Shown piece by piece: positions 10,092-41,548 of a stretch of DNA of 64,000 nt. The notes below the pieces were generated by a model. That model was not told the DNA's origin. It saw only the letters and a list, made by a program, of their open reading frames with translations, and did no database searches. The stretch covers positions 10,144 through 74,143 of IMG/VR virus record IMGVR_UViG_3300028844_003474. One strand, 5' to 3'. The DNA is from a virus. The first letter of the stretch is position 1, and the number at the start of each line of letters is the position of its first letter. The translations under genes were made by a program, and so were the position numbers.

Positions 10092-10170
10092 CGTGTTTGA
10101 GAAAAGCATCACATTTAACCGTGTGGTGTTTTTCTTTAGATATGACTCTGCCATCGCAAGCTCGACAGAG

Positions 10171-16711: not shown

Positions 16712-16798
16712 ATGGAATTTATAAAAGAGAATTGGATTGATTTTACGTGCGCTGTTTACTTTGTAGCAGCCTTTATTTTATTTACACTACTGACATGA
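16712..16798 (+). CDS. Small membrane peptide (28 aa)
   Basis: MEFIKENWIDFTCAVYFVAAFILFTLLT*, with an ATGA overlap into the next gene. Confidence 0.45.
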   Translation: MEFIKENWIDFTCAVYFVAAFILFTLLT

Positions 16799-17082
16799 AT
16801 AAAAGTTTTTACTTCCTCTTGTTGCTTACGCCAACTGCGTGCACTGGTCCTGATATTCAAACAGATGTATACACCTATGGATACTCTAATGGTGTAGAAA
16901 CTTATGAAGGATGGCAGCAATGTGATTTTAAAAGTTGCGAGGAAGTAGAATGTTGTATAACTTCAAACATAGATGGAGCTATTATAACCTATGCTCCGTA
17001 CGGGTACGATAGTTTAGTCATACAAATAGACTGTTGGACTAATGAGTGCCCAGACACAGTTTACACACATCTATACAACTGA
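16795..17082 (+). CDS. Putative lipoprotein
   Basis: Start at 16795 gives MNKSFYFLLLLTPTA|C, a lipobox-like signal; Cys-rich mature part. Confidence 0.5.
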   Translation: MNKSFYFLLLLTPTACTGPDIQTDVYTYGYSNGVETYEGWQQCDFKSCEEVECCITSNIDGAIITYAPYGYDSLVIQIDCWTNECPDTVYTHLYN

Positions 17083-17528
17083 TGAACAAGAGAGATTTAA
17101 GTAGTATTGACACTATTGTCATTCATACTACTGCAACCCAAGAGAATCAAGAGGTTACTATCGAACAAATCGATATGTGGCACAAAAAGAGAGGATGGGA
17201 CATGGTGGGTTACCACTATGTTGTAGATCTGCAAGGTAAAGTTCATAAAGGCAGATGTATTACTCAAGTTGGAGCCCATGTTAAAGGGCACAACAAAACG
17301 AGTATAGGCATTTGCTATGTAGGAGGCCTTGATGAGAATGGAGACGCCAAAGACACTCTTAGGCCTATTCAAAAAAATGCTATTGGCTTTATGCTTTTAG
17401 CTTTAAAAGCGGTCTTGCAGCAACCTATGGTTGTAAAAGGCCATAAAGAATTCACTAATAAAGCATGTCCATGTTTCGAAGTAAAAGACAAATTTGCATG
17501 GGAAATAGAGCAGTTAGCTATGGAGTAA
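17082..17528 (+). CDS. N-acetylmuramoyl-L-alanine amidase (Amidase_2, T7 lysozyme-like)
   Basis: 'IVIHTTAT', 'WHKKRGW..VGYHYVV', 'GAHVKGHN..SIGICYVGG' and 'GHKEF..KACPCF'; TGATG-coupled start at 17082. Confidence 0.92.
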   Translation: MNKRDLSSIDTIVIHTTATQENQEVTIEQIDMWHKKRGWDMVGYHYVVDLQGKVHKGRCITQVGAHVKGHNKTSIGICYVGGLDENGDAKDTLRPIQKNAIGFMLLALKAVLQQPMVVKGHKEFTNKACPCFEVKDKFAWEIEQLAME

Positions 17529-17911
17529 TATCCTTTTGTTTACTGTTTTTCTCTTCCTGTTACATACAACGTGAGCCCTGTCCTGCTTATGTAGATGACG
17601 CTGTGCCTGCGGGTACATATGACTACAATGGACCTTACGAATGTTCTAGATGGTACGAGCATAGATACGGATGGATTTGGAGTTCCGACAGCAAAGACGA
17701 TGCTTTGTATCTCTGGTGGGAAATAACTCAACGTCCTATGTACTTTGAACAAGACGGAGAGTTTCGTTTTACAGTACGTTCTGACGACCAATTCGAATAT
17801 AACTTCTTCGCGTTAGTAGAAAGCGCTAGCTGGCAAGACACTATTGGTCACATGCAGTATTACATTACTACTGATAGGGCTCGTAAATATTGGGACAAAG
17901 TACCACTATGA
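17465..17911 (+). CDS. Putative lipoprotein
   Basis: 'YGVISFCLLFFSS|CYIQREPCPAY' lipobox-like signal; the true start may be the downstream MGNRAV. Confidence 0.5.
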   Translation: MSMFRSKRQICMGNRAVSYGVISFCLLFFSSCYIQREPCPAYVDDAVPAGTYDYNGPYECSRWYEHRYGWIWSSDSKDDALYLWWEITQRPMYFEQDGEFRFTVRSDDQFEYNFFALVESASWQDTIGHMQYYITTDRARKYWDKVPL

Positions 17912-19797
17912 TATACTTAGTGTCACCTCAACAAATTATACTGACAGACGTAGTAAAACAAATTACAGCGTCTGAAGCGCACCGAATACTAAAAGATGCA
18001 ACCTACCTTCAAGTAGATTGTGAGACTACAGGCTTAAATCATATTGAGAATAAGCTGTTATTAATCCAAGTTGGTACAGCTGAACACCAAGTATTATGGG
18101 ATGTTCGAGATGAAATGTATCTAACGTTACGATTAATCTTAGAAGATCGTCGAATCAAAATATTGCACAATGCAAGTTTTGACTACAAATTTCTCAGACA
18201 AGCTGATATTCAGCTTTTTAAAGTCTGGGATACCCTTGTAGTAGAAAAGTTATTACATAACGGAGAAACAACTCCTAGAGGGTTTTTTAGGCTAATTAAC
18301 CTAGTAGATCGTTATGAAAATGTAGAATTAAATAAAGAGCAACAAAAAAGTTTTATAGATCATGGAGGAGAATTTAGTATGGATCAGCTCGTATATGCAG
18401 CTAACGACGTTCGATATCTGGAGTCAATACGAGAACAACAGCTTAAGCACTTAAAACAAAACGCTTTACTACAATGTGCTAAACTTGAGTGTGAAGCTGT
18501 GCTTGCTTTTGCTGACATTGAATACAATGGCATGACTGTTAATAGAGAAGCATGGCTTAATCTAGCTAACAAGGCCAAAGACAATGCTGTTTCTAGCCAA
18601 TCTAAATTGAATCAGATTTTACTAGATGATTCTAAATTTAAAAAGTTTGTTCCCAAAACGTATCAATCGTCATTGTTTGGAGATGAGACAAATGACAAGT
18701 TAAATAGCATTTCTGTCAATTGGTCTAGTCCAACTCAAGTGTTGCCTATACTGCAACAGATAGTACCAGAGCTTGAAAATTGTGACACAAAACAGTTAGC
18801 ATTAGCTTACAATGAAAGACATGAGCTAATTAAGCTTTATATTAAGTTTAGAGAAAACAGCAAACTGTCTACTTCATTTGGTCAAGAGTGGCTTGATAAG
18901 CACGTTAGTAGCGATGGCAAAGTTCATACAAACTTTCAACAAATATTACGTACGGGTCGAGTCTCAAGCTCAAACCCTAACATGCAACAAATACCAGCTA
19001 ATAATGAATATCGCAACTGTTTTATCTGCCCTGAAGGGTGGTCGTACATTTCGTCTGACTTCTCGTCCCAAGAACTTTGCATTATTGCCTATGGTTCAAA
19101 AGATCCTGTTTGGCTCGAGTCCCTCGAAAGAGGAGAAGACCTTCACTCAGTCTGTGCGGATCTCGTCTACGGTGATACCTGGCAACAGGCAGCGGAACCA
19201 GACTGTGATTACTTACAATCCAGACAAAAGTGTTCGTGTCCAAAGCACAAAAAATTACGAACTGCAGTAAAGAGCATTAATTTTGGCCTTGCATATGGTA
19301 TGGGACCAAATAAGCTTGCAAATCAATTACAAATCAGTGTTGATGAAGCATCTGAACTTATTAATAAGTATTTTAAAGTCTTTCCATCCATTAGAAACTT
19401 TCTTGACACCAACGCCAAGTTTGGTAAAGAGAAAGGATTCATTAGAACAATGGAACCTTATCGACGCATACGTTATTTCCCTAGTTGGAAAGGACGAGCT
19501 ACAGACAAGGCTGATATGGGAAAAATTGACCGAATGTCTCGCAACACTCCCATCCAGGGAACAGCGGGAGACATGACTAAAGAAGCTATGATTAGATGTC
19601 GTCGTGAATTTATGAATAAAAGCGACATTAAAATGGTTATGGTGGTACATGACCAAATTGACTTTATAGTCAAAGATCATACAATTGAATATTACACTAA
19701 AAGAATAACCCGCCACATGGAAGCTGCTGGTAAATCTATTATCACTAATGGTTTACTTAAAGCAGACACCACTGTAGCTAAAGCATGGGAAAAATGA
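17908..19797 (+). CDS. polA: DNA polymerase family A with 3'-5' exonuclease
   Basis: ExoI 'VDCETTGL', ExoII 'HNASFD', ExoIII 'YAANDV'; 'TGRVSSSNPNMQQIP', motif A 'DFSSQEL', motif B 'RTAVKSINFGLAYG', motif C 'VHDQI'. Confidence 0.96.
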   Translation: MIYLVSPQQIILTDVVKQITASEAHRILKDATYLQVDCETTGLNHIENKLLLIQVGTAEHQVLWDVRDEMYLTLRLILEDRRIKILHNASFDYKFLRQADIQLFKVWDTLVVEKLLHNGETTPRGFFRLINLVDRYENVELNKEQQKSFIDHGGEFSMDQLVYAANDVRYLESIREQQLKHLKQNALLQCAKLECEAVLAFADIEYNGMTVNREAWLNLANKAKDNAVSSQSKLNQILLDDSKFKKFVPKTYQSSLFGDETNDKLNSISVNWSSPTQVLPILQQIVPELENCDTKQLALAYNERHELIKLYIKFRENSKLSTSFGQEWLDKHVSSDGKVHTNFQQILRTGRVSSSNPNMQQIPANNEYRNCFICPEGWSYISSDFSSQELCIIAYGSKDPVWLESLERGEDLHSVCADLVYGDTWQQAAEPDCDYLQSRQKCSCPKHKKLRTAVKSINFGLAYGMGPNKLANQLQISVDEASELINKYFKVFPSIRNFLDTNAKFGKEKGFIRTMEPYRRIRYFPSWKGRATDKADMGKIDRMSRNTPIQGTAGDMTKEAMIRCRREFMNKSDIKMVMVVHDQIDFIVKDHTIEYYTKRITRHMEAAGKSIITNGLLKADTTVAKAWEK

Positions 19798-20039
19798 CAT
19801 TATCCATTGACAATGACCGGTACCTACAACCGGAAGAACCTGATACTCATACGTTTAAAGTAGATTTAATAGTAACTGTAGTCTACAGTTTTACTACAGA
19901 AATTGAAGCTGTAGGCAGAGAAAGCGTAAAAGGTATAGTTGAAGAGAATCAACGCTCTCTAATAGAAAAAACAGTTGATTTAGGAGAAAAAGATGAAGTT
20001 ATGTTTGATATAGACTATATTTCTGAAGGACCTGACTGA
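19794..20039 (+). CDS. Hypothetical acidic protein
   Basis: ATGA overlap with the polA stop. Confidence 0.6.
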   Translation: MTLSIDNDRYLQPEEPDTHTFKVDLIVTVVYSFTTEIEAVGRESVKGIVEENQRSLIEKTVDLGEKDEVMFDIDYISEGPD

Positions 20040-20117
20040 CATACATACGTTTTATCTATTTGCAATAAGAGTGGTATGCATTACATTGGTGATGCGTACT
20101 ACTCTTATTTACATCTA

Positions 20118-23100
20118 ATGAAAAGTATTTTATCATCAATAGCGTTAGTACTTACAGCGCTTTCAATAACAGCACAACCGCCTACGCCTGATTTTTCTTG
20201 CGGTCCAAGCACTTGGGATGGCCTAGGTAATAACCCTACGCCGGATGCGCAGGCTTTTATCTGCTATACTACCTCAGCTCCAATAGGTAAATATATTTAT
20301 TGGAACCCGTTTGTTCATAATCCTGACATGACTGAACTTGCAATGCCTGCTGAGGACTTTGCAGACTGGAATTGGGATAATATTTACGGCATGAAAGGTC
20401 GTTATGGAATTAATTTTCCTAGCTATTTAGGAGATGGAGATACATTATCTGCTCAAGTTTTTGAAACAAAACTGAATCCAACTAGTGAACCAGATGGAGA
20501 TCTTCAAACTTTTACAGATCACCAATTTGATTTTTATGGAGGAAACTACAAGTTCAATATTTTACACCTTGAGCAAGGTACTATTGTAAAAGTGCATCCG
20601 GGAGCAAGCATTGAGATTCATACTGCGTTAAGCATTGAGTACGGAGCTGTTCTAGAAATTATGCCTGGTGCAACTGTATTGCTTAAAGCTACTAGAGACA
20701 ATATAGCTGTGACTGACGTTCAAGGTGCGATTGAAGGTACTCTACAAAAAGAAGTTTACTTTGATGTAAGTGACACTTGGCAAAGTCTTTCTCAATTTAA
20801 TAAAGAACTTAGGTTTGTATTTAATCCGGGTATGTATAACGTAGACTTACATAAAGTTGCTTTAGACATACAGGCAGCTGCCACAGTACCATTGGCTTTT
20901 GGAAATTCAGAGCCAAGTGTTCAAATTGGTTATTGGGGAAAACGACCCACTTTCATAGAAACTCAATCTATGTATGACTTTGCTGCAATCCACACATATG
21001 AGTCTCCTTCTAGTTCTTTTGAACTTGTTGGAGACTCTAATCTTTTTGTAGGAGAAGCTGTTTTAAACACAGATGGATTTGTAATTAGCGAAAACGTCGG
21101 TCAAGAGTTTGCTTTAAGAACAAACAGCATGGCAGGTCATTTTTATAATTACAACGAGGGAGTTAGTATTCTCCCGATCTATCCTCCTACAGAAGACATT
21201 GGAACATCAGATGAAGCATTGCTAAACCACTGGTTTAACAGCGATGACTTTACAGGATTTGCAGATGAGACTATTAACACAACCTCTGATATATCTAGTT
21301 TTTCAAAGACTCCAATAGAGTTAGATAGAACTTTTGCAGTGTCTTTAATGGGAGTAACTAACAGTTTAGAAGACTTTAAAATTGTAGTTGAAGGTAAGTT
21401 TGACAGCAATAAATTTATTTCTGTCCAAAACTCTACTATAAGCCCGACCTTATTTGGAGTTGAACTCCCTTACCCTGGAGCTACTGCTACTTATATTGGA
21501 TACCCAGATGCATATCCTGAACAAAGTGTTTTCTTTGAGTCTACTGCTATTGCAGACCCTCCAAACAGTCTTTTATTTGGAGTGGATTTGTATTCTAGAA
21601 CAGGAGCTGATGATTACTCTTTGTACAGAGGAGTAGATTTTAGCGGCTTGTCTGTTTTAAATAACAGAACAGGAAATTATTTAGATACATATGAAACCTT
21701 ATTTACACTGCTTGCAACAGCTTTAGACGCTCAGTTAGCTTTGTTTGACATAGCTCCTCTTATAGGAAGACAAGATAGTCGAGACTTTAAGATTGACGCA
21801 GACACAGATAAGATGTATGAGTCTACAAGTGGAGAAGCTTTTCCTATTCCTGTTTCTAATTTACTTATTTGGGACGACACCGCTCCTCAATACCCAGGCG
21901 TAGAAATCACAGACTTTTATAACATAGAAGACATGAAAATCTTCTATGCAATCGGAGATACGATTAGACCTGACGAAATGTTAGCCTATAATTACAATAA
22001 TCCTTGTGATCCACAAACTATTGAAGGTGTAGGATATGACAATTATTCTACGTTTAAAGAAATAGGACTTAACTGGCTTAATAAAGGAGGCGTTTCAACT
22101 AGTGGAGCTCCTGTAGGCTCTCCTCCTGGAAGTGACACTGTTTATGCAACACGTACTAATGCTCCTGTATACAGAAAGACAGAGCAAGCTTATGTAAATA
22201 ACAAACCTGTTTTAGGTTCTATGAAAGAAGCTAGAGTTCCTGTAGGACCTGGTAATGTTGGAAGTACCGAGATTTACGATTGGACTATTGAAGAATTAAA
22301 CGACATGAACGAGTTTACTCTTTTGCGATTAGCAGGAGTAACTTTGTTAGGCGATACGCTTACCATTGCAATTGTTCCTTTAGCTACAGATGAAGACTAC
22401 AGTGCTACAGACATTGATTTGTTTGAGTCATCGGTTGCTGTAAATCCAATCATGTATTTGTTACCTCCAACAGATGTGCATGTAATGAGTCGAAAGTGGG
22501 GGTCTTACGGAAGAGGAATTAATGATTTCAATGACTCTCTTCAACTTGTCATAGACTTTGAGGCTTTAGACTTTGTAACAAATGGAGCTAACAGTTTTTC
22601 AAAGCTATTTATTGATGCTCCTGTCAAACAAGTTGGAGCTTGTGGTCTTTCCGGAGACAATCTTGTAGTAGCTACATCTACTGGTAATTTATATACCTGG
22701 GCTCCAGATTTTGAGTATGAAATTGATATGAATAGCACGTACAATATGCCAAATGAAAGTGGCAGTAGTGGAGACTACGGTAGCGGAGCTGTAGTTGACT
22801 TGTATTTTACTACTACTCAAGCAGACTTTAACGGAGACGGCTGCGTCACAACTGCTGATCTTCTTATATTACTTGGTCATTTTGGTACCAATGTTACTCC
22901 TGGTAATTTTCAAAGTGTTGCAGCTGATTTAAACTGTGATGGTGTTATTAGTACATCTGACCTTCTTATCTACTTAGGCTTTTTTGGACAATGCGCTTCT
23001 GATAGTGAAATTCCTTCTGAAGAAGCTGGAACTGTCTTACAAAAAAGAGCAGCGTGGTATTTTGGAAATAACTTTAATAATGATCATGTCAGCTATGATA

Positions 23101-23486
23101 TTATTGACGATTATCCTTCGTTTTCTCAAAGTCAAAGGGATTTTCTAAATCTGTGGCCTTATCCTGGTAAAATAACAGTTGTAGATGATTTAAATATGGT
23201 CATAGCTGACAAATGGCTAAACGGTCCTACGACCAATAATGGCGTTACTGGGTATTCAATAGAATTACCTGCTAATATGCCTACTTCAGCGCAATTAGAC
23301 ACAACCTCTGCTAAATATAGTGTTGATCTCCCTCAAACAGATCCTTCATATCGCATTTACATCGAATGGCGTGATGCTGTAAGAACTTTCCCAGGTATAC
23401 CTGGCTCAATAAACCATATATGTTTAGGGTGTAAAGAAGATCCTAATGCAATTTTCCCCCTGACTCCAACTTTTGTTGCCAATTAA
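20118..23486 (+). CDS. Large secreted protein with a dockerin-like Ca-binding repeat pair
   Basis: Sec signal MKSILSSIALVLTALSITA|Q from the ATG at 20118; repeats 'ADFNGDGCVTTADLLILLGHFG' and 'ADLNCDGVISTSDLLIYLGFFG' at about 22820-22995. Confidence 0.8.
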   Translation: MKSILSSIALVLTALSITAQPPTPDFSCGPSTWDGLGNNPTPDAQAFICYTTSAPIGKYIYWNPFVHNPDMTELAMPAEDFADWNWDNIYGMKGRYGINFPSYLGDGDTLSAQVFETKLNPTSEPDGDLQTFTDHQFDFYGGNYKFNILHLEQGTIVKVHPGASIEIHTALSIEYGAVLEIMPGATVLLKATRDNIAVTDVQGAIEGTLQKEVYFDVSDTWQSLSQFNKELRFVFNPGMYNVDLHKVALDIQAAATVPLAFGNSEPSVQIGYWGKRPTFIETQSMYDFAAIHTYESPSSSFELVGDSNLFVGEAVLNTDGFVISENVGQEFALRTNSMAGHFYNYNEGVSILPIYPPTEDIGTSDEALLNHWFNSDDFTGFADETINTTSDISSFSKTPIELDRTFAVSLMGVTNSLEDFKIVVEGKFDSNKFISVQNSTISPTLFGVELPYPGATATYIGYPDAYPEQSVFFESTAIADPPNSLLFGVDLYSRTGADDYSLYRGVDFSGLSVLNNRTGNYLDTYETLFTLLATALDAQLALFDIAPLIGRQDSRDFKIDADTDKMYESTSGEAFPIPVSNLLIWDDTAPQYPGVEITDFYNIEDMKIFYAIGDTIRPDEMLAYNYNNPCDPQTIEGVGYDNYSTFKEIGLNWLNKGGVSTSGAPVGSPPGSDTVYATRTNAPVYRKTEQAYVNNKPVLGSMKEARVPVGPGNVGSTEIYDWTIEELNDMNEFTLLRLAGVTLLGDTLTIAIVPLATDEDYSATDIDLFESSVAVNPIMYLLPPTDVHVMSRKWGSYGRGINDFNDSLQLVIDFEALDFVTNGANSFSKLFIDAPVKQVGACGLSGDNLVVATSTGNLYTWAPDFEYEIDMNSTYNMPNESGSSGDYGSGAVVDLYFTTTQADFNGDGCVTTADLLILLGHFGTNVTPGNFQSVAADLNCDGVISTSDLLIYLGFFGQCASDSEIPSEEAGTVLQKRAAWYFGNNFNNDHVSYDIIDDYPSFSQSQRDFLNLWPYPGKITVVDDLNMVIADKWLNGPTTNNGVTGYSIELPANMPTSAQLDTTSAKYSVDLPQTDPSYRIYIEWRDAVRTFPGIPGSINHICLGCKEDPNAIFPLTPTFVAN

Positions 23487-23487
23487 A

Positions 23488-26400
23488 ATGAAATACATTA
23501 AAAATACATTAATTAGCATCTTCTTAATAGGTGCATCTTTTGGAAGTCATGCGCAATATGCAGGCCAGTTCTCTGGAGTTCCTATAAATCTAGAAAGTGT
23601 TCCTCACCTTGAATATCTAATAGAGCTTGGTAGTATAGCGTGTACTACTGCTCCTTCGTGTGTAGTAAACGCTATGTCTTTTGATAATCCAGGAGCTGTA
23701 GAAGCTCTTCAAGGATATTCTTATGTAGGCACATCCGATCTTATTATTCAAAATTCTCAACATTTATCGTTGTGCCAAGGTTCAGCTCCTAATGATCCAA
23801 ATGGAGTTACTAAAATTATACCTCTCAATACAATGTTTGAGAAAGGTATTAACATTGATAGACTTTGGGTAGGTAGGCAAGTTACTCCAGTTTCAATCCC
23901 TCAAAGTCATTTAATTATAGACACTCAATATGATAGTCTTATTGTTGATGAAGTATGGGTTCCTTATGGTGCTACTCTTGAAATTATAGGACCCAATCCT
24001 TTAATCGTTAGAAAAGAGCTTCACAACAGAGGCACTATTATATGTGATGAAAACTTGTTAATTCCTGTAACCACGGATGATCCAGACGCTATAAAAGGTT
24101 TTCATGCTTTGTTTGAACAGAAAGGAGAAGTTATAGGAAGATACAGTGCTGAAGTTATGCGAAACGAACGTCCTGAGTTTCTTAACTGGGATTGGGTTAT
24201 AGAGAACTTTGGAGTTCAAGCTACTTTTATAGACTCGCTTCAAATGCTAGGACTAGATCCATATGCTATAGGATTGTATGAAGAGATCTATGAGTCACAT
24301 TTACTAGAAGGAGACCCCTGGTATATGTACAAATTAGAGCTAGATGGTGTAGAAGAAGTTTATAATCAGTTTTCAATGTCAGGAGTCCCTGTAAAAGGGG
24401 TTCGGTTTGGAGGTCAATATAAAGATTTTGCTCGAGTTGCACTGTACAAAGATGCAAGTCCTAGATTCCCATATAAATGGCAATTTCCTGAAGAAACTAC
24501 ATTACCTACTAGTTACAGTTTTTTGAGTGAACTAGGTGACGAAATTGCAGCTATTTATATGAAACAGGAAGATTTAAATTATTATCATAATGTAGTATTG
24601 AACAATGCGCCTGAATTTTTTTCTAGCGGAAGTCTAAACGATTATGAAAATTACAGTGATTCATACACTACTGGAGAGTGGGAGCGAGTTTCGTTTATGA
24701 GACCAGAGCTAACGAATGAAATTGGTTTTAGCACTGGAATCCGCACTAGATATCAATATGGCTACGATGCTGAAACTGATACTTATATAGGAGAAGGCAA
24801 CTGGTGGCCTTGGCAGTATGCAGACGGGGACCCTGGTTACCCTGATAATGTTCCTCTTCCTTGGGTAGATCCTGAAACAGGAGCGCTTGATTATAGTATT
24901 GAACAGATTGCACCAGAATATCTTGATAAAATATCTTATCAAGATTATAGAAACTTAGGTACTTATGTCAACGGTTCTGCATTTACTACTATAGATACAG
25001 ACTTAGAAGAAATTTTTGTAAGCTTTGAGTACTGTTTGTCAGAAAATATAATTCATACTTTAGAAGGACCAGAAATTTTACCAAATACAAGATTAGTTAA
25101 TAACCCTATTGCTCAAGGACTTGACACTGTTTGGACTTGGAGACCTGGAGGGTGTACAGATACTATTGTATCTACATATGGATTGTTTGACGCTGCACAA
25201 TCAACAAACTCAGGAATTCTTTGGAATTTTTATTTAATGAATGATCCAACTCAAGACAACATTTGGAATTTAACTGAAATGATGGAAAGAGATACTACAG
25301 TAGCGGGCTACGATAGTATTTATGATTACAATTGGTATTACAGAAATGAGTTAGAAGCAAGTCAAAGTATTTTTAATGGATGGGATATATGGTTTTCAAA
25401 AAGTCCAGATGTTGGGCCTAATTCTTACAGAGAAGGAAGTTTTTTTGGAGATGTAGAAACCATGGGTAGCAACGGTAACCAAATATGGGAAAACCCTATT
25501 AAATCATTCATAGCAGATACTGCAGGTCGTTTTATGCCTCAGTTATATGGAGATGCGATAAATTGGGATTCAATTCTTGCACAGAATAGTTATTATGGTA
25601 ACATAAATCTAGCTCCAAAGTTAGATAGCTGGCTTCCAGATATTCCAGAGCTTGGTTACATGATGGATTTTTATCCAGATAGTATGAGAATGGATCCAGT
25701 AGAAACAAATCCTGCTTATGCTTGGTGGGGTGCTGATTGGGTTGCTCCTGATCATTCAACGCCTCAGCCGTTTCCTACCATGTCATTTCAATATGTTGGA
25801 GGTGTTCAAAATACCGAGTGGATTGATAGGTATACTGGATATTCTTGGATGAATACTTTAGATGCATACAACGATTCTAGGATGACTTATCATCCACAAA
25901 CGTTTGAATCAGATCCAATAATACCTAATCTTCCGCCAAATAATAGTGAAGACCATCTTATATCATATAAGTTACCTACTGCTACCGATTGGGTTTATAC
26001 ATACGCGCCTAACGGCTTATTGTATGAAGCTCAAACATGGAGTGAATGTCTTGAAGTAAATGATACAACCTTTTGTATTAATTATTTTAACGGAGTTAAC
26101 CAAGCTTATGATGAGTGGGGTATTTCGATAGAAAATGATTTAACTAGTATTTCTAATAGCGCATACGATGACGCTGATCTAGAAATAGCTTTTAATAACT
26201 ATTATACTCGACGTAACAGATGGGGTTCTCTAGCAAATCCTTTACATGGTTATTTAGACTTGGATTTAGTTGCTGACCGCTATTTTGAAGATTATCCTGA
26301 ATCTAATCACTTAGAATTTGCTTGGTGGAATCCTCAAAACACTACTGGCACTTCTAATACAAATCCTGGAAATGTTCTTAATGGTACACGAAAATACTGG

Positions 26401-29400
26401 AGACGTAAGTATCATAGATATGGAGACGAAATTGTTCAAGACGAGATTGAATATTTCCTTACGTTGCTGACAGAGCAGTTTTTTGCTCAAAATGGAGAAG
26501 GTTTTTCTAATGAGTTAACTGAAGTCATTCTATCATTTTTAAATGAAGACGGAATAGCACCCGGTACTCCTGCATTTAACTGGTTAATAAGCGCTCCTGT
26601 TAATCCTAATGGTTATGTCGGTATTGGGCAATATGCAATGCCCGGATCAGGAGTTTGGGCACAAAATAGTTCAGGATCTCCCGTAAGTCTGGAAATAACT
26701 GCAGATATGGGTGTCTATGATTTTGAATTTCCTTTAAGCACAGGTAATGAAGTTTATCTCGGATCAGCAGGTCCTGGAAGTGATGGAACTGGATACGGAG
26801 GACGTGCAGCAGTTGCAAGTCAATCATCTCAGAATTACACTCCTGCAGATCATTCTACAATAGTTGTACTTGACTATGTAAATGACAGTACGTATATGCC
26901 TTGGATCTTTTTACACCATCGATTTATGGACGATGCTACAAATGGTTCTGAGCAAATTTTTGAAGACAACCATAACTCTATGCCAAACTTTCCATGGGTC
27001 TTTACAGACTCTACTAAAGTTAGAGCTTCTAATTACGTTGAAGAATATGGTCCACACAATCAACAACCCTTGTATGTAAACATTCCTCAACCTCTAGATA
27101 CTAATGAAGGTGCTTGGTGCTTTATCCCTACTCTTTTTCAAGACACGGGATCTACTTGGTATGATGTAGAGTCTGGCAACATTTATAATAGACTTGGATT
27201 AGAGTTGTTTGATAGTAATGGGGATATTACTAACATCATTTATTTAGATGAAGGAGATACTCTGTGGATAAGGCATAATGATCCGTACGATTGGCCTATT
27301 AAAGGCAAAATGTATTTTACCAACTTATATGGAGACATTAATGGAGATGGTATAATTAATATTAATGACCTTATAGAGTTGTTTACATACTTTTTGTTAT
27401 GTGAGGATGAAGCTTCTGAAATTGCATATTTTGACGCAAATGGAGACGGGTGTATTACTACATCTGATTTCATAGTAGTCTTAGCAAACTTTGGAGGTAC
27501 TGTAGGTAGTGCTATTGGTGACTTTAGCGGAAGTGTATGGGATGAAGTAGGCCCTGAAAGATTGGCCTACAGTGGAAATAGATGGGATCACCCTGATTGG
27601 CCTACTGCAGACATTGAAGCAGCTTTTGTTGGAGGTACTTTCCCAAGTATCTATGAAATTGGAAACGTTAATGCTACAAAGATTTTAAATATGCCTGGAG
27701 AGAAAATTCAGGTGTTTAACAGCAGATTAAACAGTTTTATAGAAGGTCAAAACTCTATTCAACTGCCAACAACTGGAGGTCCTTACTTTATTGTTACAGA
27801 CAGAACAGTCTCATATTATGATGTAACTGAAGTTCCTGACGTTGTTACTGTAACTGCTACAGATGCTACTATTAGCGATGCTAACGGAGGTAAAACTGCA
27901 GTTCTTCCTTCTTTAGCTGCTGCATACGTTGGGGGCGCTAATCAGTTTTGGACAAACTTCTATGAAGACATGAAGACAATAGATGGAGGATTTGATGCAG
28001 ATAATGCTGATGCTCCTACGTTGGCTCAGGTTTATTACGGTATTAACTCTGGAGTAAGCGCTAATCCTCTTAATTTAAACAATGCTAAAGTTGAAGGTTT
28101 AATTGACATGTTTGGCGCAGGTGATGCTAGACATGGATATACTCTTGAATCTTCTATTGGCGTTCAAAATGACGATCGATGGACTAAAACTGCTACAGGA
28201 TACACCAACTTTAAGCTAAATAGAGATTATCCACTTTTTCAGCCTACTATGGTTCCTCTGGCTTACGCTTTACCTAGAGTTAGAAGTTCTAGAGACGAAG
28301 AGCAAATTTTACCAAGATTTGAAACACAGGCAAAAATAGATAGACTTTTTAACGACGGTATAGCTGAGAATTTTGATGAGTTTAGCGAACTTTCTGGAAG
28401 AAGAGAGCCTGGCGTTACAGAATGGGGAGGAGACATTAAAGTACATTATGATGTTCCTTTACATAATGGTGTATTAGCAATGTGTGATTTCATGACACTG
28501 CAAGATTATTTTGAATTTAAGATGTATGGAGTTAGTCCTAAGTTTGGACAAACTAATGCAGGTTCTTCAAATCCTAGAACTGTTACTGAAAGCTTTGGTA
28601 CCGTTTACAATACTGGAGCAGTTGAAGGTGTTCCTAACGCTCCTGGTATTGGATACGCTCCAAGCTTGTGTAACAATCTTGCAGATTACAGCAGTAATAT
28701 TGTAATTCCATTTTTAACTGCTAACATTGGAAATACCGTAGTATTACCTCAAGATCCTACGCCTGTTACTCAAGACGGAATTCAGCGTAATACTGATGAT
28801 GCAGGTCACCAAAACTGGTTTGGAAATTCTGCTGCATTTGTACATAACGGAAGTTTTGGACCGCTTGTATATGATTTTAATATGAATGGTACTTGGGATG
28901 CAGATGATTTGACTATTTGGAATAACTTGGTTACAGTATGGACTGACAATAATATCAGAGAAGGTCAAGAATCTTATTCTGATGCAAGTTATTACAGGCC
29001 TGCAACAGACGCTTTAAATGAAGCTGTTAACGTCATACATGACTATGAGGATGGAGGATCTTATTATGCTTCTTGGAATTTTAACAAATGGTTTGATGCT
29101 ACTGCTACTGCAGATCCATTCGGCTACGTTGACAACTGGCATGCTTGTTTAAACCAACCAGAATGGAATTTAAACCTAATAAACCTTGTAGAATTAACTA
29201 CAACTGCGTTTAAAGGAACAAGTGTTAAAGAAGATTCATTTTTGTACAACACTGATAGAACTGGATTTAATCCAAGTTTACTTGTTCCTACAGTCTTAAA
29301 CAATTATGGAAAAGTTGCTATAGGCGACTATGTACCCGCCGGAGATTTACTTGAATATCAAGTTGTACCAAGTAGTAATTACTTTCCAGTTACAATGTAT

Positions 29401-29412
29401 TGGCATCCTTGA
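23488..29412 (+). CDS. Very large secreted protein with dockerin-like repeats (probable paralog of the upstream gene)
   Basis: Signal MKYIKNTLISIFLIGASFGSHA|Q from the ATG at 23488; 'GDINGDGIININDLIELFTYF', 'FDANGDGCITTSDFIVVLANFG' and a third 'YDFNMNGTWDADDL'; acidic and rich in aromatic residues. Confidence 0.8.
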   Translation: MKYIKNTLISIFLIGASFGSHAQYAGQFSGVPINLESVPHLEYLIELGSIACTTAPSCVVNAMSFDNPGAVEALQGYSYVGTSDLIIQNSQHLSLCQGSAPNDPNGVTKIIPLNTMFEKGINIDRLWVGRQVTPVSIPQSHLIIDTQYDSLIVDEVWVPYGATLEIIGPNPLIVRKELHNRGTIICDENLLIPVTTDDPDAIKGFHALFEQKGEVIGRYSAEVMRNERPEFLNWDWVIENFGVQATFIDSLQMLGLDPYAIGLYEEIYESHLLEGDPWYMYKLELDGVEEVYNQFSMSGVPVKGVRFGGQYKDFARVALYKDASPRFPYKWQFPEETTLPTSYSFLSELGDEIAAIYMKQEDLNYYHNVVLNNAPEFFSSGSLNDYENYSDSYTTGEWERVSFMRPELTNEIGFSTGIRTRYQYGYDAETDTYIGEGNWWPWQYADGDPGYPDNVPLPWVDPETGALDYSIEQIAPEYLDKISYQDYRNLGTYVNGSAFTTIDTDLEEIFVSFEYCLSENIIHTLEGPEILPNTRLVNNPIAQGLDTVWTWRPGGCTDTIVSTYGLFDAAQSTNSGILWNFYLMNDPTQDNIWNLTEMMERDTTVAGYDSIYDYNWYYRNELEASQSIFNGWDIWFSKSPDVGPNSYREGSFFGDVETMGSNGNQIWENPIKSFIADTAGRFMPQLYGDAINWDSILAQNSYYGNINLAPKLDSWLPDIPELGYMMDFYPDSMRMDPVETNPAYAWWGADWVAPDHSTPQPFPTMSFQYVGGVQNTEWIDRYTGYSWMNTLDAYNDSRMTYHPQTFESDPIIPNLPPNNSEDHLISYKLPTATDWVYTYAPNGLLYEAQTWSECLEVNDTTFCINYFNGVNQAYDEWGISIENDLTSISNSAYDDADLEIAFNNYYTRRNRWGSLANPLHGYLDLDLVADRYFEDYPESNHLEFAWWNPQNTTGTSNTNPGNVLNGTRKYWRRKYHRYGDEIVQDEIEYFLTLLTEQFFAQNGEGFSNELTEVILSFLNEDGIAPGTPAFNWLISAPVNPNGYVGIGQYAMPGSGVWAQNSSGSPVSLEITADMGVYDFEFPLSTGNEVYLGSAGPGSDGTGYGGRAAVASQSSQNYTPADHSTIVVLDYVNDSTYMPWIFLHHRFMDDATNGSEQIFEDNHNSMPNFPWVFTDSTKVRASNYVEEYGPHNQQPLYVNIPQPLDTNEGAWCFIPTLFQDTGSTWYDVESGNIYNRLGLELFDSNGDITNIIYLDEGDTLWIRHNDPYDWPIKGKMYFTNLYGDINGDGIININDLIELFTYFLLCEDEASEIAYFDANGDGCITTSDFIVVLANFGGTVGSAIGDFSGSVWDEVGPERLAYSGNRWDHPDWPTADIEAAFVGGTFPSIYEIGNVNATKILNMPGEKIQVFNSRLNSFIEGQNSIQLPTTGGPYFIVTDRTVSYYDVTEVPDVVTVTATDATISDANGGKTAVLPSLAAAYVGGANQFWTNFYEDMKTIDGGFDADNADAPTLAQVYYGINSGVSANPLNLNNAKVEGLIDMFGAGDARHGYTLESSIGVQNDDRWTKTATGYTNFKLNRDYPLFQPTMVPLAYALPRVRSSRDEEQILPRFETQAKIDRLFNDGIAENFDEFSELSGRREPGVTEWGGDIKVHYDVPLHNGVLAMCDFMTLQDYFEFKMYGVSPKFGQTNAGSSNPRTVTESFGTVYNTGAVEGVPNAPGIGYAPSLCNNLADYSSNIVIPFLTANIGNTVVLPQDPTPVTQDGIQRNTDDAGHQNWFGNSAAFVHNGSFGPLVYDFNMNGTWDADDLTIWNNLVTVWTDNNIREGQESYSDASYYRPATDALNEAVNVIHDYEDGGSYYASWNFNKWFDATATADPFGYVDNWHACLNQPEWNLNLINLVELTTTAFKGTSVKEDSFLYNTDRTGFNPSLLVPTVLNNYGKVAIGDYVPAGDLLEYQVVPSSNYFPVTMYWHP

Positions 29413-29417
29413 TCATG

Positions 29418-29443
29418 AAATGAAACCCTGGCTATGATATAGC
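29418..29443 (+). promoter_or_regulatory. Repeated phage motif copy 5
   Basis: AAATGAAACCCTG-GCTA-TGATA-TAGC filling the 33-nt gap before the helicase gene. Confidence 0.65.
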
Positions 29444-29445
29444 AT

Positions 29446-30693
29446 ATGATGAAAGTAAACAGCAAAAAATTAAAAAGACAGAAAGAAGTATTACGTAAAT
29501 GGGTAGCAAATAAGTGTAAGGGCACGTTAGAAGCGTGTACAGGATTTGGCAAAACTTACACTGCAATATTAGCTATTCAAAAGACGAACGAGCAATATCC
29601 AGATTACAACATACTCGTTGTAGTGCCTACAAAGCACTTAAAGACGCAATGGAGTAATGAAATTAAGAACCACGGCCTCACTAATACTGAGGTCGTGGTC
29701 ATTAATACGGGTATTAAACAAGCGAGAAACTGTGATTTTTTAATTCTTGACGAGATACATAATTACGCTAGTTATGTATTTAGCAAAATATTTTCACTGG
29801 TTTCTTACAAATGGGTTTTAGGATTAACTGCAACTTTAGAAAGACGAGATCAAAGAGATGTTTTAATTAGAGATAAAGCGCCAGTTATTGATAGAATAAC
29901 ATTAACAGATGCTTTAAAAGAAGGTTATGTTTCAGAGTTTGTAACTTATAACGTACCGCTTATCCTTAGTGAAGCTCAGAGTAAAGATTACCAAGAGATG
30001 AGCAATGAGTTTAGTTTTTACTTTTCTAAGTTTGGTCATGACTTTGGTTCAGCAATGCACTGTCTTAAAAGCAAACCTGCTCGTGAAAACATAGCTAGAA
30101 AACAAGGAGTTACAGAAGGTCAAGTAATGGGATGGGCAGCTCAGTTTCAGAAAAACCTAGCTCGTAGAAAAAGTTATTTGTACAATCACCCTATTAAGCT
30201 AGAAGCAGCTGGTCGCATTGTAAACAGTGTGGATTTAAAGATGATAACTTTTAGCGAAAGCATAGATTTTACCAAAAAACTTACGGATATTACACATCCT
30301 TGGTCTGCCGCGTATCACGGCAAGATGGCTAAGTACCAAAGAGATGCAGTCCTTAAAGATTTTGAGGACGATAAGAGAGACATCAGAGTAATCAACGCAG
30401 CTAAAGCGTTAGACGAAGGATTAGATGTACCCGGAGTAGAAGTGGCGTTGATCTGTAGTGGTACCTCGGGGGGTAGGCAAAACATCCAACGCACAGGACG
30501 TGCAATTAGATTTCAAGAAGGGAAAAAAGCATTCATCATTAACTTGTATATAAAGAATACACAAGATGAAAAATGGTTGCGAAAAAGACAAGAAAAGAAC
30601 ACTAACACGGTGACTCTAGAAGGAGTTGATGATTTGCTTTACAAGATTGCAGGAATCGAATCAGATAGAGTCACATTTGACCTATTTCAATGA
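29446..30693 (+). CDS. Superfamily 2 helicase (DExH, XPB/ResIII-like)
   Basis: 'ACTGFGKT', 'VVVPT', 'LDEIH', 'GLTAT', 'LDEGLDVP' and 'QRTGRAIR'. Confidence 0.92.
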   Translation: MMKVNSKKLKRQKEVLRKWVANKCKGTLEACTGFGKTYTAILAIQKTNEQYPDYNILVVVPTKHLKTQWSNEIKNHGLTNTEVVVINTGIKQARNCDFLILDEIHNYASYVFSKIFSLVSYKWVLGLTATLERRDQRDVLIRDKAPVIDRITLTDALKEGYVSEFVTYNVPLILSEAQSKDYQEMSNEFSFYFSKFGHDFGSAMHCLKSKPARENIARKQGVTEGQVMGWAAQFQKNLARRKSYLYNHPIKLEAAGRIVNSVDLKMITFSESIDFTKKLTDITHPWSAAYHGKMAKYQRDAVLKDFEDDKRDIRVINAAKALDEGLDVPGVEVALICSGTSGGRQNIQRTGRAIRFQEGKKAFIINLYIKNTQDEKWLRKRQEKNTNTVTLEGVDDLLYKIAGIESDRVTFDLFQ

Positions 30694-33773: not shown

Positions 33774-34743
33774 ACAAAAGATTACAAAAGACTGGATATT
33801 AGAAAAAGTTAGTCAAGAGCAAGTAATGGAATACTATTTACACGTTCCTGTACAAACTCGAGTCAAGTTTAAATCGCCTTTACGTCAAGACAAAAATCCG
33901 TCTTGTTCCTTTTTCTACAGTAAACAAGGCAAACTCTACTTTAGAGATTTTTCTAATAACAAGAGCTTAGATTGTTTTGACGTTGCGTGTCAAGTAACCG
34001 ATCTGCCTTTTAAAGAAGTACTGGCTCAAGTGGTTTCTGATATGAATTTGCAAAGTGAATCTTTTATAGTTAAGAACTATGAGCATCTTAATGCAGCTAA
34101 AGAAGACGCTAAAAAAGATACTCAAATCACAATTGCTCCTTTATTAGACGAGGATCAGTGGGCTTTAGACGCTTACGGCAAGAATTTTTGGCTGGAATAC
34201 GGTATTACACCTAGTACTTTACGCAAGTTTAAAGTGTTTCAACTAAACATTGCTTACATAAACAACTCTCGAGTTTTTACATATAACGGAGTAGAACCTG
34301 CCTTTGCCTACTATTTTGAAGCGGGACTTTTCAAATTATATTTTCCACACTCCACAGGCACTAGGTTTATGCAAAATACAACGCATATTCAAGGCTTACA
34401 GCAACTGCCAAGTAAAGGAGACTTGTTAGTTATTACCAAAAGTCTAAAAGACGTAATGGTATTTAACGAATATCGTGTTCATGCAATTGCTCCTCAAAGT
34501 GAAAGTTACAGTTTTTCTGAAGAAGATGTCTTAGATTGGAGCAAACGGTTTAGTCGCATTGTTATTGTATACGACTTTGACTATACCGGAGTCACCAATG
34601 CTAATAAGTGGAGAAAGAAGTATAACTGGGAATACAAGTTTGTACAAGGAGCTAAAGACATTTCAGATTTGTACAAAAGCTCCCCTTATCATGCAGAACA
34701 ATGGATCAATTCTTTAAAACATGATAGTAATCGAGATACCTAA
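33757..34743 (+). CDS. DNA primase (crAss-type, Toprim)
   Basis: 'SPLRQDKNPSCSF...FRDF', 'ITKSLKDVM' and Toprim 'YDFDYTG...AKDISD'. Confidence 0.9.
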   Translation: MLYEIKQKITKDWILEKVSQEQVMEYYLHVPVQTRVKFKSPLRQDKNPSCSFFYSKQGKLYFRDFSNNKSLDCFDVACQVTDLPFKEVLAQVVSDMNLQSESFIVKNYEHLNAAKEDAKKDTQITIAPLLDEDQWALDAYGKNFWLEYGITPSTLRKFKVFQLNIAYINNSRVFTYNGVEPAFAYYFEAGLFKLYFPHSTGTRFMQNTTHIQGLQQLPSKGDLLVITKSLKDVMVFNEYRVHAIAPQSESYSFSEEDVLDWSKRFSRIVIVYDFDYTGVTNANKWRKKYNWEYKFVQGAKDISDLYKSSPYHAEQWINSLKHDSNRDT

Positions 34744-35368
34744 CTATTTAACACACGTCCAATTAACAAAAGGAAGACGCCCAAAGTATTACAGTAAAAA
34801 CGGCCATATTCCTAAAAAATATCAAAAGTATAAAGACTATGATGTTAAAGGAAGGCTGCTTGACGAATCTGGCAAACCGTTAATTGCTAATCCTGCATCA
34901 ATTAACAAGCCTAGAATCAAGAAGATAAACGGTCAAGAATTATATAGTGGCAATATGCCTCCTCATCTAAGAAGCAAGATTGTAAACTGCATTAAAGAAC
35001 AGTTTCAAGCTGTTGTTTGCAAATGTAACCCATTAAGCGAATTTCCTATAGCTATCGAGGCGGAGTTACACACAATTCCCGGTATAATGAATTGGGACTT
35101 AGATAATCAATGGATTTACCACAAATGCTTTCAAGATGCATTAGTAGCAGCAGGACTTATACCAGATGACAACATTTTCTACATCACTAAAGCTCCATCC
35201 TTTTCCTACTACCCGGTGGAGAGGCTGGAAGACCGCAAACTCATTTATAGAATTACCAAGGATGATCGACCCGAACTCCGAAGTCACCCCAACTACAAAG
35301 CGCACTACAGCTCAAAACAGATTTTATTGGAAAATAGTAGTCCCAATAGTTTGCTCAACCTTGACTGA
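34721..35368 (+). CDS. rusA: RusA-like Holliday junction resolvase
   Basis: 'WDLDN...YHKCFQDALV..GLIPDDN' RusA catalytic motif. Confidence 0.8.
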   Translation: MIVIEIPNYLTHVQLTKGRRPKYYSKNGHIPKKYQKYKDYDVKGRLLDESGKPLIANPASINKPRIKKINGQELYSGNMPPHLRSKIVNCIKEQFQAVVCKCNPLSEFPIAIEAELHTIPGIMNWDLDNQWIYHKCFQDALVAAGLIPDDNIFYITKAPSFSYYPVERLEDRKLIYRITKDDRPELRSHPNYKAHYSSKQILLENSSPNSLLNLD

Positions 35369-35630
35369 TCACGGGTGGGATCGTTCAACTGTTATTGACG
35401 GTGCATTGCCTGCGCCTTTAACTTACACTGATACACACAATTGGCTTAAGGCTAATTTTGCACTTACAGATGAAATAAGAGAAGACGGAATTGTTTTAGG
35501 CATGAAGATTATGTCTACTACAGATATGACAATAAAAAGATTTAGTGTCTACATCGAAAGCATTCGACAGTGGGCAGCAGAGTATATGAATACAGAGATT
35601 CCAGATCCACAATTACAATATGAATTATGA
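35166..35630 (+). CDS. NinB/YbcN-like recombination protein
   Basis: 'KRTTAQNRFYW' and 'STTDMTIKRFSVYIESIRQWAAE....IPDP'; start is at 35166 or 35262. Confidence 0.75.
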   Translation: MTTFSTSLKLHPFPTTRWRGWKTANSFIELPRMIDPNSEVTPTTKRTTAQNRFYWKIVVPIVCSTLTDHGWDRSTVIDGALPAPLTYTDTHNWLKANFALTDEIREDGIVLGMKIMSTTDMTIKRFSVYIESIRQWAAEYMNTEIPDPQLQYEL

Positions 35631-37861: not shown

Positions 37862-37863
37862 AA

Positions 37864-38994: not shown

Positions 38995-39000
38995 TTGATA

Positions 39001-39031
39001 GGGAGGGGAAGGTTTAAGACTTTCCTCTCCC
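39001..39031 (+). terminator. Hairpin after rIIB (possible terminator)
   Basis: GGGAGGGGAAGGT...ACTTTCCTCTCCC inverted repeat without a U-tract. Confidence 0.45.
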
Positions 39032-39041
39032 AACAATTACT

Positions 39042-39896: not shown

Positions 39897-39905
39897 TTAA
39901 ACATT

Positions 39906-41547: not shown

Positions 41548-41548
41548 T

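Follow-up and report, generated by a model that had tools for sequence, protein, structure and literature searches.

Two large dockerin-bearing proteins with predicted signal peptides are encoded by a gene pair of marine crAss-like phages

Between the polymerase and helicase genes of an uncultured, lytic-type crAss-like marine phage lie two adjacent genes whose large products each carry an internal type I dockerin and a predicted Sec signal peptide. About 11–12% of the phage genome is devoted to this pair. Because host-style export signals are combined with dockerins, the envelope of the infected cell is probably where the proteins act, and the reading that we favour, with confidence a little above even, is of a lineage operon of exported proteins that act on the host envelope, probably by masking, modifying or destroying a variable surface structure. 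Few phages of Bacteroidota are as abundant as the crAss-like phages, yet, to our knowledge, almost nothing is known of their products in or on the host envelope during infection. The conserved operon would offer a concrete handle on cell-surface remodelling, whether by excluding rival phages, destroying receptors or altering how the cell adheres to particles. The window analysed here is a stretch of 64,000 nucleotides (positions 10,144 to 74,143 of IMG/VR record IMGVR_UViG_3300028844_003474), and all coordinates are positions within it.

Results

An intact gene pair in the replication block

The two genes lie in the replication block, on the strand opposite to the structural genes.

20118..23486, + strand: gene 1, intact ORF encoding protein 1 (1122 aa)
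23488..29412, + strand: gene 2, intact ORF encoding protein 2 (1974 aa)

Two tandem intact ORFs of ~1120 and ~1970 aa, occupying more than a quarter of the early/middle block, had been predicted; both are as described, and together they take up 9.3 kb of the ~34-kb + strand block (~27%). When alternative starts are included, the intact + strand ORFs span 20076/20118–23486 and 23473/23488–29412. The preferred starts are MKSIL at 20118 and MKYIK at 23488, and a single nucleotide separates the gene 1 stop codon (TAA, 23484–23486) from the gene 2 ATG. Residues are numbered here from 20076 for protein 1 (P0001) and from 23473 for protein 2 (P0002).

The region is not a chimera: both junctions are spanned in an independent marine metagenome, where contigs of another study cover 18189–20663, 20646–25743 and 29177–29991, which excludes the chimeric assembly that had been raised as a possibility. 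The region was found in marine metagenomes of seven studies, with one sample being a viral fraction. Short contigs with at least 99% identity, covering parts of both genes, were also present in two metatranscriptome libraries. These give a weak hint that the pair is expressed, and only a weak one because carried-over DNA could give the same contigs, from which neither strand nor level can be read.

RNA and DNA elements flank the pair on either side.

20064..20109, + strand: stem-loop with a 21-bp stem and 4-nt loop (RNA fold −30.8 kcal/mol, z −8.3 against shuffles)
29411..29444, + strand: intergenic motif copy, AAATGAAMCC plus a GCTAY..RTAGC hairpin, directly upstream of the helicase gene

The stem-loop falls between a small upstream ORF and gene 1, ending 9 nt 5′ of the ATG at 20118. 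A complete 85-kb relative (described below) has a hairpin at the equivalent place (−31.2 kcal/mol, z −6.8), in which the flanking stem sequence differs and still pairs; each of the two genomes has the 5′ arm, GGTATGCRTTACATT, only once. An ‘MHYIGDAYY’ extension in gene 1 calls is probably spurious though conserved, its conservation being explained by the stem-loop at 20064–20109. A sigma-70/terminator consensus scan, uninformative for a Bacteroidota phage, did not call this hairpin a terminator. The motif predicted directly after the pair proved real: AAATGAAMCC with a short hairpin occurs four times on the + strand (10171, 10789, 13925 and 29418) against 0.55 expected, and every copy sits just upstream of a gene.

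Predicted signal peptides with glutamine at +1

Signal peptides were called by a hydropathy and motif heuristic.

20118..20174, + strand: gene 1 signal peptide MKSILSSIALVLTALSITA, cut before Gln (hydropathy heuristic; family conservation)
23488..23553, + strand: gene 2 signal peptide MKYIKNTLISIFLIGASFGSHA, cut before Gln (hydropathy heuristic; family conservation)

By this heuristic, both N-termini have a basic n-region, a hydrophobic h-region, a small residue at −1 and Gln at +1, reading ...LSITA|QPP in protein 1 and ...GSHA|QYA in protein 2. The Sec signal peptides with Ala-Gln cleavage named in the original prediction thus appear in both proteins, and the layout of a small residue followed by Gln recurs in 18/18 protein 1 relatives and 12/13 protein 2 relatives, although the most distant family members share only 23–31% overall identity. 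The Gln+1 rule is particular to the signal peptidase I substrates of Bacteroidota (PMC5837995, PMC10653852), and phage-encoded proteins that follow it are reported for P. gingivalis prophages (PMC10367356). From these sequence features, export of both proteins is very likely.

A screen of all ORFs of at least 80 aa in the 74-kb record found such N-termini, among the larger ones, only in proteins 1 and 2, apart from a few exceptions. The exceptions were one spanin-like lipoprotein candidate and short ORFs that overlap larger genes.

No T9SS C-terminal sorting domain (Por_Secre_tail PF18962, TIGR04183 type A or TIGR04131 type B) was detected in either protein at E ≤ 1 with Pfam/NCBIfam; a search of 34 family members at E ≤ 0.05 likewise gave none, and neither a lipobox nor a recognisable outer-membrane anchor was found in proteins 1 and 2. 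No route past the periplasm is therefore evident, which is a point against our main reading.

Cysteines are conserved pairwise in protein 1 (42/63 and 1116/1119) and in protein 2 (859/868, 1310/1327 and 1733/1892). The pair is acidic, with 4.8% K+R compared with 12.6% in other phage proteins, and rich in W, Y, N and D.

Internal type I dockerins

Each protein contains one complete dockerin, and protein 2 has a further single repeat.

22812..23000, + strand: protein 1 internal type I dockerin, residues 913–975 (Pfam Dockerin_1 match)
27328..27495, + strand: protein 2 internal type I dockerin, residues 1286–1341 (Pfam PF00404; PDB profile match)
28870..28923, + strand: protein 2 extra single calcium-loop-plus-helix repeat YDFNMNGTWDADDLTIWN, residues 1800–1817 (near-invariant in alignment A3)

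Pfam Dockerin_1 (PF00404) scored 27.3 bits at residues 916–965 of protein 1 and 33.4 bits at residues 1286–1336 of protein 2, both above the gathering cut-off of 22.9 bits, so that what had been predicted as paired, dockerin-like calcium-binding repeats are genuine dockerin modules. A six-frame search of the record recovered the two (32.4 and 37.3 bits) and no others. Each consists of two tandem DxNxDGxxxxxD calcium loops, each followed by a helix (DFNGDGCVTTAD and DLNCDGVISTSD in protein 1; DINGDGIININD and DANGDGCITTSD in protein 2), and the loop residues are invariant or nearly so in the family alignments. A dockerin was detected (E ≤ 0.05) in 15/21 members of the protein 1 family and 11/13 of the protein 2 family. 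The modelled dockerin of protein 1 superposes on solved dockerins (TM 0.82, rmsd 1.1 Å), and a PDB profile search matched that of protein 2 to 2y3n_B (E 2e-7). The extra repeat of protein 2 (1800–1817) aligned weakly with the protein 1 dockerin in BLAST; gene 2 of the 85-kb relative has, downstream of its main dockerin, another weak Dockerin_1 half-match that probably corresponds to this repeat. A cohesin (PF00963) search at E ≤ 10, which divergent cohesin folds would escape, gave nothing for either this record or the complete 85-kb relative.

A β-helix fold in protein 1

The AF2 model of protein 1 (pLDDT 75.3, pTM 0.72) has, in order, an N-terminal right-handed β-helix of adhesin or lyase type, β-sandwiches, the dockerin and a C-terminal domain.

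20199..21410, + strand: protein 1 N-terminal right-handed β-helix region, residues ~42–445 (core 42–256), from the model
23016..23483, + strand: protein 1 C-terminal α/β domain with a conserved CxxC (HICLGC) and a near-invariant FVAN ending (alignments A1 and A2; model; Cys conservation)

The last 100 residues of the model form four strands plus helices, not a seven-strand sandwich. The top match in BFVD was a ‘putative hemin binding protein [uncultured marine phage]’ (E 2.9e-7). Foldseek matches to the PDB outside the dockerin (lectin, jelly-roll and capsid-like) were discarded, all having a probability of 0.25 or less, and neither protein 1 nor the C-terminal third of protein 2 had a usable match in the ESM Atlas. 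For protein 2, no domain match was obtained apart from the dockerin, and an AF2 model of residues 780–1979, built from 13 sequences, reached a pLDDT of only 42.7 and was not usable.

Relatives and origin of the pair

Profile searching of 1.84 billion representative proteins returned only ~14 full-length relatives, with otherwise ~1000 dockerin-only matches; the full-length relatives that were looked up were all metagenomic, on contigs of at most 85 kb that were phage-sized or smaller. Gene 1 has 7 close and ~14 distant full-length relatives. Gene 2 has 12 (31–93% identity), which are always accompanied by a gene 1 relative where contigs permit checking, the context of most relatives being inferred. 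In the complete 85-kb relative, an IMG/VR genome with direct terminal repeats, the pair occupies the equivalent slot; the flanking genes there are 54–72% identical to those of our phage, whereas the pair is 25% and 31% identical. In FpV4, the nearest cultured relative, the pair is absent and the helicase gene follows the polymerase gene after 200 bp. The predicted insertion between polA and the helicase gene therefore holds in a comparative sense only, because the polymerase–helicase interval of FpV4 has no such genes; a recent insertion is contradicted by the slot being kept in the 85-kb relative.

Megablast and tblastn against 50,697 cultured-phage records gave no match to the region or to either protein. 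Pattern scans, which distant relatives could escape, found no homologue in 185,579 species genomes, no match in JGI metagenomes and nothing in IMG/VR with P0001, P0002, alignment A1 or P0007; in IMG/VR the 85-kb relative was recovered only via P0026.

The GC content and codon usage of the pair are the phage’s own (RSCU r 0.9). Comparison of protein 1 with protein 2 by BLASTP and profile–profile hhalign found only the dockerin in common, and the N-terminal regions compared alone gave a probability of 2.5%. Of the shared architecture first proposed, the signal peptide and dockerin stand; the YGAVLEI/YGATLEI and LNNRTGNYLD/LANPLHGYLD resemblances are not significant. The small number of relatives, the dockerin as the only shared part, the phage-like codon usage, the common slot and the low identity of the pair together indicate an old, lineage-specific and fast-evolving operon.

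Alternative readings

The pair might instead encode virion components, such as tail spikes or fibres with a receptor-binding role, that are encoded outside the structural block and whose hydrophobic N-termini serve for membrane staging or stay uncleaved. Receptor-binding proteins are typically large and diverge fast compared with neighbouring genes, as the pair does, and these features, together with a β-helix, are also expected of tail spikes; the region is moreover present in the viral-fraction metagenome, though this shows only that the DNA is packaged. However, tailed-phage virions assemble in the cytoplasm, and a Sec-type leader with Gln at +1 is found in essentially all members of both families. 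The pair is co-oriented with the replication genes and opposite to the structural block, where the 85-kb relative has separate large tail-type genes of its own (644, 843 and 1145 aa). Neither protein had a PHROG match at E ≤ 0.1 or a match to a tail family, and the best fold matches of protein 1 were non-phage adhesins, not tailspikes. We consider a virion role unlikely.

Secreted proteins that degrade or bind polysaccharide, working on capsule, biofilm matrix or algal glycans and thereby aiding progeny escape or feeding the infected cell, would fit with the dockerins, which in bacteria typically tag carbohydrate-active enzymes, and with the W-, Y-, N- and D-rich composition, which resembles that of carbohydrate-binding proteins. 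Yet the 34 family members contained no CAZy-type Pfam family, no catalytic residues, motif or enzyme family could be identified in either protein, and no route across the outer membrane is evident, which leaves this role rather improbable.

Recent capture of a host-like cell-surface cassette from a flavobacterial host, followed by its duplication in the phage, as first predicted, would account for host-type signal peptides, for a module common in bacterial exported proteins (hence the ~1000 dockerin-only matches) and for FpV4 lacking the pair at the equivalent position, but it is largely refuted and must be very improbable: outside the dockerin, the profile search of 1.84 billion representative proteins and the pattern scan of 185,579 species genomes gave no bacterial homologue, only the ~14 relatives, which were metagenomic where looked up; the pair cannot be told from the remaining phage genes by GC content or codon usage; the 85-kb relative, with flanking genes 54–72% identical, keeps the pair in its slot; and proteins 1 and 2 are not paralogues beyond the dockerin.

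Discussion

We propose that the gene pair is one old operon specific to a lineage of marine crAss-like phages infecting Bacteroidota, and that its products act on the envelope of the infected host. Both would be synthesised in the infected cell, cross the inner membrane via host Sec and be cleaved by host signal peptidase I so that glutamine becomes the first residue, as happens to most exported Bacteroidota proteins. The mature proteins would fold outside the cytoplasm as acidic, calcium-binding and probably disulfide-bonded molecules. Protein 1 would then display a β-helix of the kind used by adhesins and by polysaccharide-binding or polysaccharide-cutting proteins, and the internal dockerins could clip both proteins to a partner. 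Because the pair evolves much faster than the surrounding replication genes, it most likely touches some variable component of the host envelope, for instance a surface glycan or phage receptor. The pair would most plausibly mask, modify or destroy that structure, so that other phages are excluded or progeny are kept off debris; alternatively, the pair may alter what the infected cell adheres to.

A more specific version, to which we give little credence, has the proteins fold in the calcium-rich, oxidising periplasm and then clip by their dockerins onto a socket that escapes recognition as a cohesin by sequence models, on the host surface or on released virions. If this were true, a socket on the host surface would give the infected cell a phage-made coat, and one on released virions would mean that adhesins are added to a tailed phage outside the cytoplasm, after lysis.

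Among known systems, the envelope superinfection-exclusion proteins of lytic phages (T5 Llp, T4 Imm and Sp) are exported during lytic infection and block or mask further phage entry. They are our working analogy for the function of the pair; they are small (under 100-ish residues) and sequence-unrelated to it.

Phage tailspike depolymerases (CBA120 TSP3, 5w6f; phiAB6, 5js4) are likewise large and rapidly diverging and also have a right-handed β-helix. In contrast to the pair, they have no signal peptide, their genes stand with the tail genes and they start with a domain that binds the particle. Also among the closest known systems are the tapirins (4wa0, 6n2b and 6n2c), cellulose-binding β-helix adhesins on the cell surface of Caldicellulosiruptor.

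The Gln+1 proteins of P. gingivalis prophages, which are of unknown function and have been proposed to alter the host envelope, are likewise phage-encoded, with Bacteroidota-type signal peptides exposing an N-terminal Gln (PMC10367356). There they belong to temperate siphophages of an oral anaerobe and the available text mentions no dockerin, whereas the present proteins, of 1122 and 1974 aa, are dockerin-bearing and belong to a lytic-type crAss-like marine phage.

Full-text literature searches found no paper describing phage-encoded dockerin proteins. Known type I dockerins (PF00404; for example, 2y3n_B, 2ozn_B and 2ccl_B) have the same two calcium-loop-plus-helix segments and likewise occur on Sec-exported proteins. 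Compared with these, the modules of the pair are phage-encoded and internal rather than C-terminal, have conserved cysteines inside the loops and come without an attached carbohydrate-active enzyme domain or a cohesin found in the phage; the pair thus extends dockerin modules to phages of marine Bacteroidota.

Genome context of the gene pair

The DNA spans positions 10144-74143 of a linear IMG/VR record (74,143 bp), and by its gene content the source is a crAss-like phage. The portal and large terminase (TerL) matched phrog_6547 and phrog_6681, TerL was 40% identical to that of Flavobacterium psychrophilum phages FpV4 (the nearest cultured relative) and FpV21, and the nearest polA matches were crAss001-type phages. 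Between 8.2 and 42 kb, a block of genes on the + strand comprises tRNAs, an amidase, a spanin-like lipoprotein candidate, polA, a small ORF, genes 1 and 2, and a helicase, followed by a DnaB-like protein, Sak4, primase, rIIA and rIIB. The features considered here are:

10171, 10789, 13925 and 29418, +, AAATGAAMCC motif with GCTAY..RTAGC mini-hairpin, intergenic
17046-17528, +, amidase (phrog_822)
17890-19797, +, polA
19785-20039, +, small acidic ORF (9678-9925 in L005, the locus of the 85-kb relative)
20064-20109, +, stem-loop directly 5' of gene 1 (21-bp stem, -30.8 kcal/mol, z -8.3)
20118-23486, +, gene 1 (1122 aa)
23488-29412, +, gene 2 (1974 aa)
28870-28923, +, isolated repeat within gene 2
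29446-30693, +, helicase
42055-57915, -, 5286-aa ORF

The 5286-aa ORF presumably encodes the giant RNA polymerase protein found in virions of the crAss type; its 5115-aa counterpart in the complete 85-kb relative G001 (51227-66574) is 32% identical over 2031 aa. A lysis cluster (16747-17911) lies immediately 5' of polA, where a 148-aa ORF overlapping the amidase has a lipoprotein-like leader (LLFFSSC) and is a spanin candidate, and a preceding 111-aa ORF has an internal lipobox-like leader, MNKSFYFLLLLTPTAC.

Both genes were intact ORFs separated by 1 nt, and the starts originally predicted, ATG 20118 (MKSIL...) and ATG 23488 (MKYIK...), are preferable, as a classic leader opens at each. Relatives also keep the 14 codons 5' of 20118 ('MHYIGDAYY...'), but these overlap the stem-loop, so that the extension seen in gene calls is probably spurious and its conservation not that of coding sequence. 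A chimeric assembly was ruled out, since contigs of one run from another study bridged polA/gene 1 (18189-20663), gene 1/gene 2 (20646-25743) and gene 2/helicase (29177-29991). The stretch was present in marine metagenomes from seven studies (2017 to 2025), including one viral-fraction sample. Short contigs of at least 99% identity in two metatranscriptome libraries covered both genes, which is not proof of transcription.

Two large dockerin proteins with conserved predicted export leaders

Pfam Dockerin_1 exceeded its cut-off once in each protein, bearing out the predicted dockerins, and these two were the only ones in the record. Beyond dockerin, neither protein nor any of 34 relatives matched a Pfam, NCBIfam or PHROG family. 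AF2 gave a model of protein 1 (pLDDT 75.3, pTM 0.72), while the attempt on protein 2 was too low for a usable model (pLDDT 42.7), so that the latter is described at the sequence level.

Domain architecture of proteins 1 and 2
Protein 1, N-terminus: leader, the first element in the AF2 model
Protein 1, residues ~42-256, reaching ~445: right-handed beta-helix (AF2 model)
Protein 1, residues 455-500: linker, poorly modelled (AF2 model)
Protein 1, residues ~503-912: beta-rich domains (AF2 model)
Protein 1, residues 913-975: dockerin (AF2 model)
Protein 1, after the dockerin: C-terminal alpha/beta domain in which a CxxC is conserved (AF2 model)
Protein 2, residues 1286-1341: one dockerin, with a leader at the start of the protein
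Protein 2, residues 1800-1817: single extra calcium-loop-plus-helix repeat, YDFNMNGTWDADDLTIWN, near-invariant across the family; the third such unit, ~460 residues past the dockerin

The leaders end ...SITA|QPP in protein 1 and ...GSHA|QYA in protein 2. In a heuristic screen by hydropathy and motif, all 18 members of the protein 1 family and 12 of 13 of the protein 2 family began with a basic n-region and a hydrophobic core, ending in a small residue and then Gln, in keeping with the Ala-Gln signal peptides first proposed. In Bacteroidota, signal peptidase I substrates typically carry Gln at +1, the 'Q-rule' (PMC5837995, PMC10653852). Such leaders support a Bacteroidota host, and so do the set of crAss-like genes and the marine origin of the sequences. 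The composition of both proteins is acidic (K+R 4.8%), with N, D, G, P, T, Y and W abundant, and their cysteines are conserved in pairs, features consistent with extracytoplasmic folding. Neither protein had a lipobox or a T9SS C-terminal domain (Pfam, NCBIfam), and no cohesin was found in the 74-kb record or the complete 85-kb relative.

The pair is an old insertion that diverges faster than its neighbours

Close relatives of protein 1 (n = 7, 49-98% identity) and relatives of protein 2 (n = 6, 36-93%) were all metagenomic. A protein 1 profile run against 1.84 billion representative proteins returned ~14 full-length relatives (995-1148 aa) and about a thousand more matches confined to the dockerin. 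All clusters looked up came from metagenome assemblies with contigs of at most 80 kb; relatives of both genes occurred on contigs of the same sizes (14785, 17245, 15125, 15845 and 70539), indicating that they travel together.

One of the relatives, P0026, is encoded in IMGVR_UViG_3300017728_000002, a genome of 85,481 bp that is complete and bears direct terminal repeats. This relative has, in the same order, the amidase, spanin-like gene, polA, small ORF, gene-1 homologue, gene-2 homologue (1847 aa) and helicase, and then again in shared order a 187-aa ORF, DnaB-like, Sak4 and a 218-aa ORF. The small acidic ORF is kept there with its DNDRYL.../...FDIDYIS motifs, and matched no family. Flanking proteins were 54-72% identical between the two phages, whereas the pair reached just 25% and 31%; the leaders were nevertheless retained (...GASA|QPD and ...FFAQS|QTS). 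The linear 74,143-bp record ends inside the tail-gene region (matched against G001 34096-47400), where the 85-kb relative has ~10 kb extra, including 843-aa and 1145-aa ORFs; a record broken within the tail genes and ~10 kb short agrees with its CheckV completeness of 87%.

FpV4 has 200 bp and nothing else between its polymerase gene and a helicase homologue (28% identical to that of the window), and no large FpV4 protein has a leader of the pair's type. With the same slot occupied in the 85-kb relative, the pair is thus an insertion relative to FpV4-type phages, as predicted, but not a recent one, being old within the marine lineage. The adjacent helicases are homologous, yet window polA had no BLASTP match (E <= 0.01) to FpV4 DNA polymerase gp62, which suggests polymerase replacement between related crAss-like phages.

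The original prediction of capture from a flavobacterial host and duplication, read as recent events, is contradicted: the relatives looked up are all metagenomic, the pair has GC of 0.37-0.38 and codon usage like the rest of the phage (RSCU r 0.9) with no foreign signature, it is not traceable by sequence to any host gene, and BLASTP and hhalign found only the dockerin in common (N-terminal regions alone, 2.5% probability).

The stem-loop before gene 1 has a counterpart at the same position in the 85-kb relative (L005 ~9950-9985), with stem changes that preserve pairing. Each of the two genomes has its 5' arm, GGTATGCRTTACATT, only once, and the stem-loop could be a processing site, attenuator or promoter hairpin. 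The promoter-like motif predicted after the pair is real, with four copies against 0.55 expected, each 28-143 nt 5' of a + strand gene, although as a phage promoter it is a candidate only. Bracketed by hairpin and motif, the pair may be separately controlled.

Possible function

The pair is most likely an accessory operon of predicted exported envelope proteins. Both would be exported to the envelope of the infected cell and there contact a variable structure on the host surface, as suggested by a helix of adhesin type, by modules for docking and by a divergence far above that of flanking genes. Contact would mask or destroy a receptor or glycan (the favoured effect, with altered adhesion as second choice), so that rivals would be excluded or progeny protected. 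That the proteins are instead virion spikes would agree with the fold and evolutionary tempo, but sits poorly with conserved leaders of the cleavable type, with where the genes lie and with the 85-kb relative having tail genes of its own elsewhere. The reading as a secreted glycan-degrading enzyme is weakened by the failure to find a catalytic family.

In the papers searched, no crAss-like phage from the sea was described as keeping two giant exported proteins with dockerins, conserved as a pair, among its replication genes. The components are known individually: dockerin, the beta-helix adhesin fold and Q-rule leaders, and phage-encoded Q-rule proteins have already been described, P. gingivalis prophages being reported to encode them (PMC10367356).
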